From Eubacteriales bacterium (GTDB lineage Bacteria > Bacillota > Clostridia > Oscillospirales > CAG-272): 61,140 bases of DNA. The notes beneath the pieces were generated by a model. It was not told the DNA's origin. It did not search any database and was given only the letters and a program-made list of their open reading frames with translations. Below are positions 217 to 61,131 of the stretch, in pieces (within the stretch, counting starts at the first letter, position 1; every line of letters starts with the position of its first letter). Position numbers and translations under genes: made by a program. The stretch spans positions 1 to 61,140 of the forward strand of contig JAZNHE010000019.1 in NCBI GenBank assembly GCA_045576795.1, in the 5' to 3' direction.

Positions 217-395
217 TTGTTTCCACCTCCATAAAAATTTCAAATAAAAAATCCTTTCCGGGAGAAACACACAGCTCACCGAGAAAGGACAACCAAACAG
301 GCATAGTGATAACACTACACCAAATTATTGAATTTGTCACACCTCGGCAGGAAAGCTCTATGCTTTTACCGGAACCTGCTGTCTTAGGATACCTT
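217..395 (-). promoter_or_regulatory. Ribosomal protein L10 leader-like 5' UTR with intrinsic attenuator hairpin
   Basis: A ~180-nt untranslated leader lies between a consensus promoter and rplJ. On the rc strand, hairpin TCCTTTC(289-283)...GAAAGGA(258-252) is followed by TTTTTTATTT just before the SD, as expected for L10-leader attenuation in Firmicutes. No covariance model was run. Confidence 0.5.
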
Positions 396-399
396 TGGT

Positions 400-428
400 A
401 TTATACACGAAGTATACACGTTTGTCAA
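400..428 (-). promoter_or_regulatory. sigma70-type promoter of the rplJ operon
   Basis: rc strand reads TTGACA (428-423), 17-nt spacer, TATAAT (405-400). Confidence 0.65.
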
Positions 429-2545: not shown

Positions 2546-3858
2546 ATTTTCTTCCTAAGCTTTGCTATGAAAAATCCGTCGCACTCGTTTATATGAGGCA
2601 AGAGCGTCATCATTCCGTCAACAGATGCGTTCTCCCCGACCGTGAACTCCTCAGCAAAGAACTCGGGGTGTGATGAGAGAAATTTCTCGACAATTCCCTC
2701 GTTTTCACTCGGATTTAACGTACACGTTGAATAAAGAATGCATCCGCCATTCTTTAAGTACTGCGATGATTTTTCAAGTATATCATATTGCAAAATTGGT
2801 AGTTTTTGCAAACTTTCATTGTCTTTATGCCGTATATCAGGCTTTTTACCGAGGACTCCGAGTCCCGAGCATGGTACGTCGCATATCACCTTATCAAAGC
2901 TTCTGAACAGCTCCTCCCGAGGCTTTGTCGCATCAAGCACACCAACCCTTATACAATCAAGTCCAAGGCGAGATGCACCATCCTCTATCAGCGAAAGCTT
3001 ACTTTCGTGCAGGTCAAATGAATACACCTCGCAATCGCCCTGTGCGAGTATAGCCGCGGCAAAGCTCTTGCCTCCGGGACACGCACAGACGTCGATAATT
3101 CTGTCACCGGCCGCGGCGGAAAGCACCTCGGCACTGATTGCACAGGCTACGTCCTGAACGAAGAACAAGCCCTCGTCAAAGCCGTAAAGCCTCCTCGGAT
3201 TAACAGAGCCCGGAAGCCTTACTGTCATAGACGAGCTTGGGTGAGGATATGCTTCATATCCCTGTTTCTCAAGCTCACGTACGAGCTCCTCGCGCGTCGT
3301 TCTTGTAAGGTTAACTGTAATATCCGTATATCTCGCAGTATTGAGATGTCTCATCAGCTCCTCGGCTCCGTCCTCTCCGCAAAGCGATATAAAATGCTTT
3401 GCCATCCAGAGCGGATATGAGTAGCGTACCGAGAGATAACGCGCAACGTTCTTCTCCCTCTTTGGCAGCGTTAGACCGCCATCCGCCAAAAGACGTACCG
3501 CGCGTCGAAGAACACCGTTGACAAATCCGCGCTCACCGACGTTTCTTGCCAGCCGGACAGTATCATTTACTGCCGCGTGGTCTGGGACGGAGTCCATATC
3601 AGCAATCTGACACATTCCGATACGGAGTATGTTGAGAGTATATGGATCTATTTTGTCAATACTCCTCTCGGCTATTGAGGTTATGTAATAATCATAAGTA
3701 ATCTTTCTCTCGACGGTGGTATAAAGCAGGGCGGTAAGAAATCCGCGCTCCTCCCCCGTGAGCTTATCCGTCAAGTGAGAGGATAGCGATAGATTTACGT
3801 ATTTGCCATTAGCTTCATAATCGTTCAAAAGAGAAAGCGTAAGCTCTCTCACTGTCAT
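2542..3858 (-). CDS. rsmB: 16S rRNA (cytosine967-C5)-methyltransferase
   Basis: NusB-like N-terminus plus SAM-MTase motifs DVCACPGGKS, DVPCSGLG and YSTCT. Overlaps the rlmN start by 4 nt. Confidence 0.9.
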   Translation of the reverse strand: MTVRELTLSLLNDYEANGKYVNLSLSSHLTDKLTGEERGFLTALLYTTVERKITYDYYITSIAERSIDKIDPYTLNILRIGMCQIADMDSVPDHAAVNDTVRLARNVGERGFVNGVLRRAVRLLADGGLTLPKREKNVARYLSVRYSYPLWMAKHFISLCGEDGAEELMRHLNTARYTDITVNLTRTTREELVRELEKQGYEAYPHPSSSMTVRLPGSVNPRRLYGFDEGLFFVQDVACAISAEVLSAAAGDRIIDVCACPGGKSFAAAILAQGDCEVYSFDLHESKLSLIEDGASRLGLDCIRVGVLDATKPREELFRSFDKVICDVPCSGLGVLGKKPDIRHKDNESLQKLPILQYDILEKSSQYLKNGGCILYSTCTLNPSENEGIVEKFLSSHPEFFAEEFTVGENASVDGMMTLLPHINECDGFFIAKLRKKI

Positions 3859-3860
3859 AA

Positions 3861-4550
3861 TTAACGTCTTCTTTCAAAAATTCTAAGCAGGCGCAAAAGC
3901 TGTAGTATCGACATAGCAAGTGCCGCAACGTAGGTCATAGCCGCTGCAGAAAGCACCTTTTTGGATGCGGCAAGCTCCTCACCTGAATACCAACCGCACA
4001 GCTCAAGCTCGGTAAGTGCGCGCTTTGATGCATCGAGCTCACAAGGCAGGGTAACAAGATGAAAAAGTGTAGTTGCGGCAAAGAGAACAATGCCGAACAT
4101 TATAACGTAGTTACCGAGCACCAACGAGCTGTATGATATAAATAATCCGATGATTATTGCTATCCAGGAAAATCTCGATGCAAAATTAACCGCAGGCACA
4201 AGCTTGGTTCTGATTACGATAGGAGCGTAATTCTCCGCGTGCTGAATAGCGTGTCCGACCTCGTGTGCCGCGACACCAACCGCCGAGGCAGAGGATTTAT
4301 CGTGTACCGAGTCGGAAAGTCTTAAAACGTTATTGCGAGGATCGTAATGGTCGGTAAGATTACCGTGAACTCGCTCTATACGCACGTTGAACAATCCGTG
4401 CGCGTCAAGTATTCTTCTCGCTACCTGGCTACCCGTGTAGCCTACTCCCGAGCTTTTGCCCGAAAATTTATTAAACGTGGTCGAAACTCTGATCTGAACC
4501 ACGAGCGTAAGTAAAAATGTCAGAATAAAGAGAATATAGAAATAATCCAT
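3861..4550 (-). CDS. Membrane zinc metallopeptidase (YugP / PF04298-like)
   Basis: HEVGH zinc motif, N-terminal TM helix and C-terminal TM helices, 229 aa. Confidence 0.8.
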   Translation of the reverse strand: MDYFYILFILTFLLTLVVQIRVSTTFNKFSGKSSGVGYTGSQVARRILDAHGLFNVRIERVHGNLTDHYDPRNNVLRLSDSVHDKSSASAVGVAAHEVGHAIQHAENYAPIVIRTKLVPAVNFASRFSWIAIIIGLFISYSSLVLGNYVIMFGIVLFAATTLFHLVTLPCELDASKRALTELELCGWYSGEELAASKKVLSAAAMTYVAALAMSILQLLRLLRIFERRR

Positions 4551-28586: not shown

Positions 28587-28645
28587 ATATGAGCGCAACG
28601 GCATAAATCTCGCAACCGCTCCAAAAAGTGCAAATCACAGCCGAG

Positions 28646-28668
28646 CATAACGCCTGCATAGTTAAATG
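28646..28668 (+). pseudogene. Truncated 5' copy of tRNA-Arg(CCT): leader + acceptor 5' strand + D-arm start
   Basis: CATAACGCCTGCATAGTTAAATG matches 28987-29009 at 22 of 23 positions. It diverges completely after the D-loop G. Confidence 0.85.
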
Positions 28669-28986
28669 TAGCAAGCTAAAAACAACTGAGTGTTGTTTTT
28701 GGCGTAGCGAAACCACCCAAAGCAAAGATCAGGCAAAGCTGAATTTGTTTTTATCCGACGCATACCGCTTGCGGTATATTGCGTTATTCGTCGTGTACGA
28801 CCGACGAATAGCAAACTATGCGACGGTGGCGTAATATAATAAGCCCCTCATAAATAATAGGTCTATTCTACAGGATAGCCCGAAACGCCATTGGGATAGG
28901 CTCAACACCACAAGGATTTTGTGTCCTAAATCTGCCAAACGAAGTTTTGTACGTCATTTCTACACCCGAGTGCCAATACAACTAAA
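28669..28986 (+). ncRNA. Candidate structured non-coding insert co-transcribed with tRNA-Arg (unclassified)
   Basis: No SD-preceded ORF. Stacked hairpins: 12-bp GCTAAAAACAAC/GTTGTTTTTGGC (28675-28703); ACGCA-TACCG-CTTG-CGGTA-TAT-TGCGT (28758-28784); ATTCGTCG/CGACGAAT (28786-28809); GGCGT/ACGCC (28828-28889). There is no terminator until after the tRNA. Confidence 0.4.
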
Positions 28987-28992
28987 CATCAC

Positions 28993-29067
28993 GCCTGCAT
29001 AGTTAAATGGATATAATAAACCCCTCCTAAGGGTTAGTTATGGGTTCGATTCCCGTTGCGGGTGCCA
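28993..29067 (+). tRNA. tRNA-Arg (anticodon CCT)
   Basis: Hand-folded cloverleaf: acceptor GCCTGCA/TGCGGGT (two G-U pairs), D-stem GTTA/TAAT, anticodon stem AACCC/GGGTT with loop C-T-CCT-A-A, T-arm ATGGG-TTCGATT-CCCGT, encoded GCCA 3' end. Confidence 0.85.
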
Positions 29068-60504: not shown

Positions 60505-60533
60505 TTGACAAAACGTCTTAAGTGTGTTATTAT
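60505..60533 (+). promoter_or_regulatory. sigma70-type promoter driving the tRNA-Leu transcription unit
   Basis: TTGACA (60505-60510), 17 nt, TATTAT (60528-60533) with extended -10 TGt. Confidence 0.65.
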
Positions 60534-60561
60534 TATTTAGCGTGAAAAACGCAACTAATAT

Positions 60562-60598
60562 GCGGACGTGGCGGAATTGGCAGACGCGCTGGTTTCAG
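60562..60598 (+). pseudogene. Truncated 5' half of tRNA-Leu(CAG): acceptor strand through anticodon
   Basis: 37 of 37 nt identical to 61047-61083. It ends exactly after the anticodon CAG and is followed by an unrelated CUUG-loop hairpin (60599-60622). Confidence 0.9.
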
Positions 60599-60625
60599 CT
60601 TTCGACACCTTGGTGACGAAAGCAA

Positions 60626-60653
60626 TTGAAAGTTGAAAATGGAAAATTGAAAA
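60626..60653 (+). repeat. Left arm of heptad-built inverted repeat (TTGAAAG TTGAAAA TGGAAAA TTGAAAA)
   Basis: Complementary at 24 of 28 positions to 61011-61038. All four non-Watson-Crick positions fall at heptad position 7. Confidence 0.85.
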
Positions 60654-60668
60654 TGAGGAGAAACGGAT

Positions 60669-61010
60669 ATGGCAAACATAATCGAAGAAAAATCTTTTGC
60701 GTTTGCTATAAGGATCGTCAATCTTTATAAGCATTTAAATGAAGTAAAAAAAGAATTCGTTTTGTCCAAGCAACTTTTAAGAAGTGGAACAAGCATCGGT
60801 GCAAACGTGGCAGAAGCAGAACAGGCTCAAAGCACTCCGGACTTTGTATCCAAAATGAGCATTGCCTTAAAAGAGGCATCAGAAACAAAATATTGGATCA
60901 GACTTTTGGCTTCAACGAGTTACCTGACAGAAGCCGAGACTGTTTCTATATTAAACGATTGTGTTGAGATTGAAAAGATTTTAGTGAGTATTATAAAATC
61001 TTCTAAATAA
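60669..61010 (+). CDS. Four-helix-bundle protein (23S rRNA intervening-sequence protein / TIGR02436, Avd-like fold)
   Basis: 113 aa. SD GAGGAG 8 nt upstream. Signature ...SKQLLRSGTSIGANVAEAEQAQSTPDFVSKMSIALKEASETKYWIRLL... is typical of this family. Confidence 0.8.
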   Translation: MANIIEEKSFAFAIRIVNLYKHLNEVKKEFVLSKQLLRSGTSIGANVAEAEQAQSTPDFVSKMSIALKEASETKYWIRLLASTSYLTEAETVSILNDCVEIEKILVSIIKSSK

Positions 61011-61038
61011 CTTTCAACTTTCCACTTTCAATTTTCAA
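61011..61038 (+). repeat. Right arm of heptad-built inverted repeat (CTTTCAA CTTTCCA CTTTCAA TTTTCAA)
   Basis: Starts immediately after the ORF stop codon. It pairs with 60626-60653. Confidence 0.85.
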
Positions 61039-61046
61039 CTGAATAA

Positions 61047-61131
61047 GCGGACGTGGCGGAATTGGCAGACGCGCTGGTTTCAGGTTCCAGTGAAGCAATT
61101 CATGTGGGTTCAAGTCCCGTCGTCCGCACCA
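61047..61131 (+). tRNA. tRNA-Leu (anticodon CAG), class II with long variable arm
   Basis: Acceptor GCGGACG/CGTCCGC, D-arm GCG-GAATTGGCAGA-CGC, anticodon loop TT-CAG-GT, variable arm TGAAGCAATTCATGT, T-loop TTCAAGT, encoded ACCA. Confidence 0.85.

Follow-up and report, generated by a model that had tools for sequence, protein, structure and literature searches.

A candidate mobile cassette of rRNA intervening-sequence type in the leader of tRNA-Leu(CAG) genes of animal-gut Clostridia

Intervening sequence (IVS) elements of 23S rRNA and the S23p open reading frames (ORFs) they carry have been known for decades and, to our knowledge, neither a function nor a mechanism of spread has been shown for them; the S23p ORF of Coxiella looks dispensable. 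In Coxiella burnetii the IVS is 428 nt long, lies in helix 45 of the 23S rRNA, carries an S23p ORF and is excised by RNase III, with heptamers preceding the start codon in copy numbers that differ among strains (PMC4990558). A different class of insertion is directed at tRNA genes, where successive tandem integrations leave scattered partial tRNAs behind (bioRxiv 10.1101/2020.12.28.424599). Here we describe a locus that recalls both, at the end of a 61,140-nt stretch of DNA from a Eubacteriales bacterium (contig JAZNHE010000019.1), the whole of which we call the window. In this locus, a gene for a predicted four-helix-bundle protein of 113 amino acids (aa) is placed in the leader of an intact tRNA-Leu(CAG) gene, behind a copy of the 5′ half of that same tRNA.

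The cassette shares with the described IVSs an ORF set between inverted arms able to form a long stem, as well as tandem heptamers, variable in number, by the ORF start. It is not located within a 23S rRNA helix (25 or 45) and is therefore termed IVS-type rather than an IVS. On balance we favor the explanation that a cassette of the rRNA-IVS type resides in the tRNA-Leu(CAG) leader, with the tRNA 5′ half acting as a recombination repeat, and that it moves by homologous recombination while its junctions are inherited. A preliminary description of this DNA had proposed an IVS-like cassette sitting in a tRNA precursor rather than in an rRNA; both elements of that proposal were borne out, the inverted heptamer arms being those of the Coxiella IVS plan (PMC4990558).

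The cassette in the tRNA-Leu(CAG) leader

The locus occupies the last 640 bases of the window, with all of its parts on the forward strand and, as everywhere below for the window, coordinates given as positions within it. Every part named in the preliminary description (promoter, 37-nt half-copy, hairpin, arms, 113-aa ORF and tRNA) was recovered where it had been placed. A sigma-70-type promoter (60505–60533) combines TTGACA, a 17-nt spacer and a TG-extended TATTAT, matching at 11 of 12 positions, and is followed by a short leader of 28 nt (60534–60561) whose last five nucleotides, AATAT, resemble the AATAA before the real tRNA. The half-copy (60562–60598) then reproduces nt 1–37 of tRNA-Leu(CAG) at 37 of 37 positions and ends after the anticodon CAG. 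The intact tRNA-Leu(CAG) itself, found by both ARAGORN and Rfam (48 bits against the Rfam tRNA model), lies at 61047–61131, and its own nt 1–37 form the right direct repeat of a 485-bp unit of which the half-copy is the left. The repeat extends at lower identity to 45 nt (60557–60601 against 61042–61086, 96%), and neither ARAGORN nor Rfam calls the half-copy at 60562–60598 as a tRNA. A chance repeat is not a plausible explanation, as the 37 nt match exactly within 841 nt and the same layout is found in independent assemblies.

Between the two repeats, a hairpin of the form G-CUUUCG-A-CAC-CUUG-GUG-A-CGAAAG-C (60598–60623) abuts the half-copy on one side and the 5′ arm on the other. Its core spans 60599–60622, G60598 and C60623 add one further pair, and the predicted fold has an energy of −12.5 kcal/mol (z = −4.5). 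The 5′ arm (60624–60654) consists of 4.4 tandem heptamers with the consensus AATTGAA, and the 3′ arm (61009–61040), complementary to it, of 4.6 tandem heptamers with the consensus AACTTTC. Complementary arms had been predicted as 28-nt repeats; the complementarity is real, but it is imperfect rather than that of exact 28-mers, amounting to 84% over 25 nt (60624–60648 with 61009–61033) or 86% over 22 nt (60631–60652 with 61019–61040). The predicted arm duplex has an energy of −27.3 kcal/mol, and the arms pair with each other in the minimum-free-energy fold of the whole precursor. Just within the arm stem, a Shine-Dalgarno sequence, GAGGAG (60655–60660), stands 8 nt before the ATG of the 113-aa ORF (60669–61010), the window's ORF type being designated cassette A. 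A spacer, GAATAA (61041–61046), separates the 3′ arm from the tRNA, at a distance of 6–13 nt that is set by the choice of arm end. The 485-bp unit codes for the 113-aa ORF alone, with no integrase.

By homology the 113-aa protein is assigned a four-helix-bundle fold. The hidden Markov model (HMM) search proposed in the preliminary description upheld its placement of the ORF in the 23S-IVS protein family, with 99.2 bits against PF05635 (cut-off 33.8; profile positions 4–105 of 106) and 112.1 bits against TIGR02436 (cut-off 24), and the Protein Data Bank structures 2RLD (E = 5e-40, residues 3–113) and 2GSC (E = 6e-5) also match. The ratio of nonsynonymous to synonymous divergence (dN/dS) of the ORF is 0.02–0.07, with synonymous divergence (dS) running from 0.3 to saturation. 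Such strong purifying selection indicates a protein that is functional and strongly constrained, and an old linkage to tRNA-Leu. A role as a component of a defense system was considered and set aside, PADLOC giving no match for the A-type protein or for the B-type and YcxB proteins introduced below. An origin in phages or plasmids was likewise rejected, as blastn returned tRNA matches only; tblastn gave two distant matches (41–45%) in unannotated fecal phage contigs.

Two features of the window sequence are recorded here as observations in their own right. In the minimum-free-energy fold of the precursor (60541–61131) the 3′ acceptor strand of the tRNA finds its partner in the acceptor strand of the upstream half instead of in the 5′ strand of the tRNA itself, and the cassette is enclosed in the manner of a giant anticodon-loop insertion. 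In addition, the anticodon-loop sequence GTTTCAG and the first hairpin strand CTTTCGA (60592–60605) resemble the 3′-arm heptamers CTTTCAA and CTTTCCA (61009–61040), and the second hairpin strand, ACGAAAG, resembles the 5′-arm heptamers TTGAAAG; this likeness may be chance in AT-rich sequence, or it may hint at how the junction originated.

Linkage to tRNA-Leu and movement between genomes

About 60 related loci, designated by L-numbers, were assembled from animal-gut Clostridia metagenomes. Besides type A they hold a second four-helix-bundle cassette, type B, defined from L004. The exact 113-aa protein and eight further proteins were looked up, five of A type (85–95% identity) and three of B type (74–95% to the L004 B protein), and all nine are followed by tRNA-Leu, at a distance of 36–62 nt or beyond further units. 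Contigs that carry the exact 113-aa protein have at least five unrelated flanks among them, and tRNA-Leu(CAG) always follows closely; overall, the A and B cassettes are linked to tRNA-Leu in more than 12 different flanking contexts. In every A or B locus with enough downstream sequence, tRNA-Leu follows directly after the cassette or after further units, and no locus holds two complete tandem tRNA genes. The carriers are uncultured Clostridia and Eubacteriales from the gut of goat, sheep and roe deer. A clade of animal-gut Clostridia generally has this four-helix-bundle gene family linked to tRNA-Leu, and the linkage is old.

Other elements of the window locus recur as well. Promoters of the form CTTGACA...TATG(T/G)TAT(C/T)AT align upstream in L001, L002, L006, L007, L018, L112 and L126, the Shine-Dalgarno site is kept in an alignment of related loci, and the spacer GAATAA is identical in the window, L001, L002, L006, L007 and L009, traveling with cassette A. 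A scan of 185,579 species genomes for the hairpin motif returned 11 matches, five of them in metagenome-assembled genomes of Clostridia or Eubacteriales. Four of these five adjoin a half-copy of tRNA-Leu(CAG), and the fifth (L018) has only CTTTCAG left, with tRNA-Leu(CAG) downstream; the other six are chance matches in high-GC genomes. An assembly artifact can be dismissed, since the layout recurs in ENA, NCBI, JGI and Logan assemblies. The literature yielded nothing that links the PF05635/TIGR02436 family or IVS-type cassettes to tRNA genes, in keeping with the preliminary description, which knew of no tRNA-associated version. As a variation on this theme, L123 and L124 (2400–2961) hold an A-type cassette (85% aa identity) upstream of tRNA-Leu(TAG) instead of tRNA-Leu(CAG), with a 15-nt remnant matching the 5′ end of their own tRNA-Leu(TAG) and a variant of the hairpin.

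Comparison of the cassettes with their surroundings reveals strong incongruence. Between the window and L006, which alone shares the window's flank, the neighboring gene has a dS of 1.47 (82.7% nucleotide identity), whereas the cassette ORF has a dS of 0.014, a single synonymous change. From arm to spacer, the window cassette shares 99.5–99.8% identity with its counterparts in L001, L006 and L007, against only 85.9% between the tRNAs of these loci and that of the window; conversely, L018 has a tRNA 100% identical to the window's and a cassette of only 92.5% identity. The block of near-identity begins within the half-copy or the hairpin and stops at tRNA +1. This incongruence with the tRNA and the neighboring gene shows that the cassette moves between genomes independently of the adjoining tRNA, with exchange of cassettes between species.

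Copy number varies too. L009, L002 and L004 are contigs of 96–100% identity with zero, one and two copies, respectively, of a 492-bp unit that comprises hairpin, B cassette, spacer and 37-nt half and sits exactly at the CAG|G junction; they represent empty and occupied alleles for cassette B. What is gained, lost and duplicated is a unit of hairpin, arm, ORF, arm, spacer and 37-nt half, bounded by the tRNA-5′-half direct repeat. The tRNA-Leu(CAG) of L009 (2501–2585) itself has C6 opposite A67, a mismatch in the acceptor stem, and joins a window-like 5′ half to an L004-like 3′ half; it could be a recombination chimera in its 5′ half or the product of a single point change.

In arrays, different units are stacked in different orders before a single intact tRNA and a terminator: A-YcxB-B-B in L004; truncated A, B and then an element designated E in L014; A-A′ in L119; and, in L127 and L129, B behind a remnant of B. 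Several of these arrays hold half-copies foreign to the resident tRNA. Halves 1 and 2 of L004 are of the GCAGGTG type, that of the resident tRNA of L014, beside a GCGGATG tRNA; L014 shows the converse, with a GCGGATG half-copy after its B cassette; and L119 and L127 have AATTGG-type half-copies beside AACGG-type tRNAs. Since cassette B is regularly trailed by a GCGGATG half-copy, the half tends to travel at the 3′ end of the unit. The preliminary description had raised the possibility that the cassette travels with a tRNA half as its targeting or homology segment, and it is this alternative that the incongruence, the foreign half-copies and the zero-, one- and two-copy alleles favor. Its other possibility, insertion into the anticodon loop with an intact gene restored, is in formal terms the same as any other permutation of the repeat and, as these data do not separate it from recombination between half-copies, is not established.

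Two array members differ in kind from the A and B cassettes. One unit of L004 is filled by a YcxB-like ORF of 171 aa (3379–3993; PF14317), the only protein cassette seen that is not a four-helix bundle; before it come a half-copy that has diverged, an inverted hairpin (CTTTCGTCACCAAGGTGTCAAATG) and a 5′ arm of B type. Element E is a conserved, non-coding sequence of about 110–149 nt in tRNA-Leu(CAG) leaders, without a match in Rfam, which occurs in L135 (2927–3075 and 3114–3262), L014 (3530–3678, minus strand), L004 (3975–4108), L006 (2780–2850) and L009 (2367–2500), and also in L017 and L133; the window lacks it. Immediately upstream of it lies a tRNA half-copy (junction CAG(G)|(A)TAACG) or, in L006, the promoter, and in L135 it is duplicated in tandem along with a half-copy. 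Its consensus fold combines a GNRA-capped hairpin, AAAACCGCAGAAATGCGTTTTT, with a helix that has three covarying pairs. The sequence after half 2 of L014 was considered as a YcxB remnant, a reading ruled out by L135, which shows it to be element E.

Beyond the tRNA, a few hundred bases downstream, L112 (3795–4655) and L114 (1531–2311) carry barnase-type ribonuclease genes (PF00545) with a small downstream ORF. Copies of about 19–22 nt of the tRNA-Leu 3′ end lie some 130–150 nt downstream of the gene in L001 (3596–3631), L126 (about 150 nt past the tRNA) and L127, and are classical scars of 3′-end attachment (att) sites; beyond the scar of L001 there is an N-terminally truncated PF05635 ORF (3987–4244). 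An integrase gene lies downstream of the tRNA in L102–L104, and a MobL relaxase in L135. Apart from these ordinary integrases past the tRNA 3′ end in L102–L104, no recombinase was found in or beside the loci, and their gene tables hold no reverse-transcriptase Pfam family. The neighbors of the cassette in the window are housekeeping genes, with no reverse transcriptase or recombinase among them. Further copies of the cassette, which the preliminary description suggested looking for, did turn up at the tRNA-Leu loci of relatives; within the window there is no second four-helix-bundle gene, rRNA or intron family. At its other end, the window holds an ordinary ribosomal protein L10 leader (237–406, minus strand; RF00557, 47.7 bits).

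The tRNA half as a recombination repeat, and competing explanations

The state of the half-copies differs widely between lineages. They match their own, mutually different tRNA alleles perfectly in the window, L004, L006, L136 (38/38) and L135 (38/38); they are point-mutated or interrupted in L001, L013, L017 and L018, shortened to 23 nt (L112–L118), 15 nt (L123), TCAG (L126) or GCGGACG (L007), and absent from the L102 and L122 groups. Across 13 aligned contexts no hairpin column varies, in contrast to the 5′ two-thirds of the half-copy. Variants of the hairpin hold or improve its pairing (L119, −17.9 kcal/mol; that of L123 folds too), and in L136 and L137 a 9-bp hairpin of unrelated sequence stands in the same place between a perfect half-copy and the arm. 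Since the half-copy has decayed, been truncated or been lost in many lineages while the hairpin was kept, the comparison suggests that the half-copy is dispensable and the hairpin is not. Half-copies that are either perfect or decaying are what would be expected of a recombination repeat, a pattern that a functional RNA would not give.

We therefore propose the following model. The tRNA promoter would drive a single precursor made up of half-copy, hairpin, cassette and tRNA, in which the arms would pair into a stem of about 28 bp. RNase III would probably cut this stem, as it does in rRNA IVSs, and as the Shine-Dalgarno site lies on the loop side of the stem, the ORF mRNA would retain it after the cut; RNase P would free the tRNA. 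The hairpin may give each cassette RNA a structured 5′ edge, serving perhaps as a 5′ stabilizer or a processing signal. The half-copy, in contrast, would be a recombination repeat or built-in homology arm rather than a functional RNA, and repeats of this kind would permit excision, duplication by unequal crossing-over, integration and exchange through homologous recombination. A repeat of 37 nt is shared with the tRNA and one of 61 nt by blocks of half plus hairpin; tRNA sequence being conserved, the repeat could serve between species. Each exchange or gene-conversion event would renew the half-copy, which would be free to erode once it had fallen below an identity threshold.

Several points weigh against this model. 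A homology of 37 nt is near the lower limit for RecA-dependent recombination. Three unrelated sequences (the CTTTCG hairpin, the L136 hairpin and element E) abut the tRNA 5′ half at positions 36–38, and the window's tRNA-Arg also has a pseudo-half that ends just past the anticodon loop; a junction that had arisen once, purely by accident, and then been passed on by homologous recombination would not be expected to recur in this way. TTTCAG in L018 and TCAG in L126 persist beside the hairpin although the half-copy is otherwise gone, which would fit the core site of a recombination reaction. The promoter, RNase III and RNase P steps are ones that we infer. Finally, whereas the search for uninterrupted alleles succeeded for cassette B in the zero-copy allele of L009, for the window's own locus no allele came to light that runs fully empty from promoter to tRNA: its neighbor protein has no database record, relatives of the neighboring gene were retrieved in 80 metagenome loci, and in the 15 of these scanned for tRNAs, which included the closest (44–80% identity), no tRNA lies beside the neighboring gene.

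A broader view is possible, and we offer it tentatively: the locus may be a cassette platform, on which small genes, mostly of the IVS type, spread between species, stack before tRNA-Leu in an integron-like fashion and are expressed from the tRNA promoter, with half and hairpin together forming either a homology arm or the att site of a recombinase specific to the anticodon loop. If this were true, it would be the first concrete mechanism for the movement of IVS-type elements.

Less likely, and on our estimate rather doubtful, is site-specific recombination proper, in which TTTCAG and the adjacent palindrome constitute an att-like site and a recombinase encoded elsewhere (a tyrosine integrase, Xer-type or integron-like) inserts circular cassettes bearing a 5′-half att site into the anticodon loop, and so builds integron-like arrays driven by the tRNA promoter. 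The clustering of junctions at tRNA positions 36–38 with three unrelated right-hand partners, and the tRNA-Arg besides, speaks for it, as do the near-perfect 11-2-11 palindrome formed by the hairpin, its single occurrence in inverted orientation (L004 half 2), the TTTCAG or TCAG retained beside it where the half-copy decayed, the integron-like arrays of promoterless cassettes behind one promoter, and the precedent of tRNA-targeting elements that leave partial tRNAs in tandem (bioRxiv 10.1101/2020.12.28.424599). Yet no recombinase gene lies in or beside the loci, only ordinary integrases past the tRNA 3′ end in L102, and L127 and L129 combine a foreign upstream half-copy with a wholly resident tRNA, the opposite of what simple loop insertion would produce. 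The unrelated sequence in L136 means that the hairpin sequence is not universal, there are very few kinds of cassette (two four-helix-bundle types, YcxB and element E), and the hairpin motif, chance matches aside, is confined to tRNA-Leu across the 185,579 species genomes.

That half-copy and hairpin act together as a functional RNA, either a decoy that pairs with the tRNA 3′ half to tune tRNA-Leu(CAG) maturation or a tRNA-like processing signal that would mark off the parts of the polycistronic transcript, strikes us as improbable. The precursor fold that joins the acceptor strand of the upstream half to the 3′ acceptor strand of the real tRNA would suit such a role, and at least five lineages with differing tRNAs do have perfect half-copies, each following its own tRNA allele. 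However, the alternative pairing equals the native one in energy by construction, most lineages have a half-copy that is decayed, interrupted, cut to 15–23 nt or absent while ORF, arms, hairpin and tRNA are intact, and foreign half-copies that mismatch the resident tRNA persist in arrays.

Still less probable is a static relic, that is, one ancient tandem duplication of tRNA-Leu of which one copy was broken by an insertion and which has been inherited vertically ever since. Although a CAG|CTTTCG junction common to most loci fits a single origin, and the decay series of the half-copies resemble pseudogene erosion, the strong incongruence of the cassette with the tRNA or neighboring gene and the zero-, one- and two-copy alleles in near-identical backgrounds largely refute it, and differing cassette orders, foreign half-copies and perfect half-copies matching divergent resident tRNAs are at odds with it. 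An RNA-mediated origin, in which an anticodon nuclease cuts the tRNA or its precursor behind the anticodon, an RNA ligase joins its 5′ half to the cassette RNA and the reverse-transcribed product recombines into the locus, is scarcely credible: the junctions do lie at positions 36–38, where anticodon nucleases cut, and the protein family is homologous to Avd, the partner of a reverse transcriptase in diversity-generating retroelements (DGRs; PMC10053308), but no reverse transcriptase lies near any locus, the repeat tends to take in a few leader bases before tRNA +1, and there is no poly-A or CCA footprint.

The tRNA-Arg(CCT) gene of the window (28993–29067; whole region 28637–29067) has a decayed pseudo-5′-half upstream. 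Leader and nt 1–17 lie at 28637–28668, followed by a 165-nt insert with a terminator-like hairpin and by nt 18–37 at 28834–28853, which are identical at 18 of 20 positions, have the anticodon changed from CCT to CAT and lose all similarity just after the anticodon loop. The locus has no four-helix-bundle gene, arms, cassette hairpin or Rfam family. The parallel is weak and should not count as a second instance of the tRNA-Leu cassette system; the suggestion in the preliminary description of a half-duplicating mechanism recurrent in this genome, which had only this interrupted and decayed pseudo-half to stand on, is not established.

Comparison with known systems

Other candidate identities can be set aside. 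With gathering and with permissive thresholds (E up to 5), Rfam finds only the tRNA in the insert region, which eliminates a group I intron or another known RNA. The hairpin is not of the IS200/IS605 type (palindrome-associated transposable elements), as its right end is followed by tRNA +1 instead of the remainder of a target, and a 37-nt duplication is present. The DGR accessory protein Avd has a homologous four-helix-bundle fold (PMC10053308; structural relatives 2RLD and 2GSC), but a DGR context was rejected, with no reverse transcriptase, template or variable repeats at the window or the related loci. Introns of tRNA genes (group I in bacteria; position 37/38 in archaea and eukaryotes) share with the cassettes a breakpoint in the anticodon loop, at positions 36–38. 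In contrast to these introns, the tRNA gene here is intact and the insert is a protein-coding cassette with a duplicated segment resembling a 5′ exon.

The resemblance to integrons lies in small promoterless cassettes lined up after a single strong promoter, with a repeated site that can form a hairpin at the boundary of each, in copy numbers and orders that differ between close relatives. Unlike integrons, the arrays have no IntI or attI that we could find, and no integrase upstream of any of them; the repeated site is a tRNA fragment plus hairpin, and the repertoire is tiny, with two four-helix-bundle types, YcxB and one non-coding element.

With tRNA-targeting elements (phages, integrative and conjugative elements, genomic islands and tycheposons) the locus shares an insert bounded by a full and a partial tRNA, the unit being delimited by a directly repeated tRNA portion, and according to Williams (2002) the anticodon loop is reportedly among the crossover sublocations of such elements. 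They duplicate the 3′ part of the tRNA and carry an integrase of their own, whereas the cassettes duplicate the 5′ half and carry none. Moreover, an insert of only 485–492 bp between promoter and tRNA, which requires read-through transcription, is unlike them, and ordinary 3′-end att scars occur separately at the same tRNA as the cassettes (L001 and L126).

The 23S rRNA IVSs of Coxiella burnetii, Leptospira and others have the PF05635/TIGR02436 protein, long-stem arms and heptamers in common with cassette A (PMC4990558). Both are embedded in a stable-RNA transcription unit, and both have a patchy distribution that implies horizontal transfer. Pairing of the arms holds for the A, B, L102 and Monoglobus cassettes despite their differing sequences, at −19 to −36 kcal/mol; arrays of period 7 have 4.9 and 8.1 copies in L122 against the 4.4 and 4.6 of the window. 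The more distant Monoglobus cassette (L121, 2418–2853; Monoglobus pectinilyticus NZ_OY725736.1) is found in a type I restriction-modification operon, where hsdS and hsdR flank it, with 24-nt arms of 92% complementarity, a four-helix-bundle ORF that is a pseudogene by virtue of an in-frame stop, and no tRNA. Its position shows the arm-ORF-arm module to be a general one that can sit in other operons and is not specific to tRNAs; specific to the clade are its attachment to tRNA-Leu, the half-copy and the hairpin. In contrast to the 23S IVSs, the cassette lies in a tRNA 5′ leader, outside any mature RNA helix, and no excision is therefore needed for the RNA to work. Its ORF has a strong Shine-Dalgarno site in the stem and the low dN/dS given above, whereas that of Coxiella is decaying and probably untranslated; and only here is the cassette flanked by a tRNA-5′-half direct repeat and a conserved hairpin and found in multi-cassette arrays.

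These comparisons bear on IVS-type elements in general. The locus furnishes a testable model for IVS mobility, either recombination through a conserved stable-RNA sequence or a loop-specific recombinase, and it suggests that the function of the protein is tied to stable-RNA transcripts or to the heptamer arms. As no recombinase is encoded, standard finders of mobile elements would miss an array-forming cassette system of this kind. Partial tRNAs flanking tandem integrations of integrase-bearing elements were already known; what appears to be new here is an IVS-type cassette outside rRNA whose tie to a single tRNA gene holds across lineages in which synonymous divergence is saturated.

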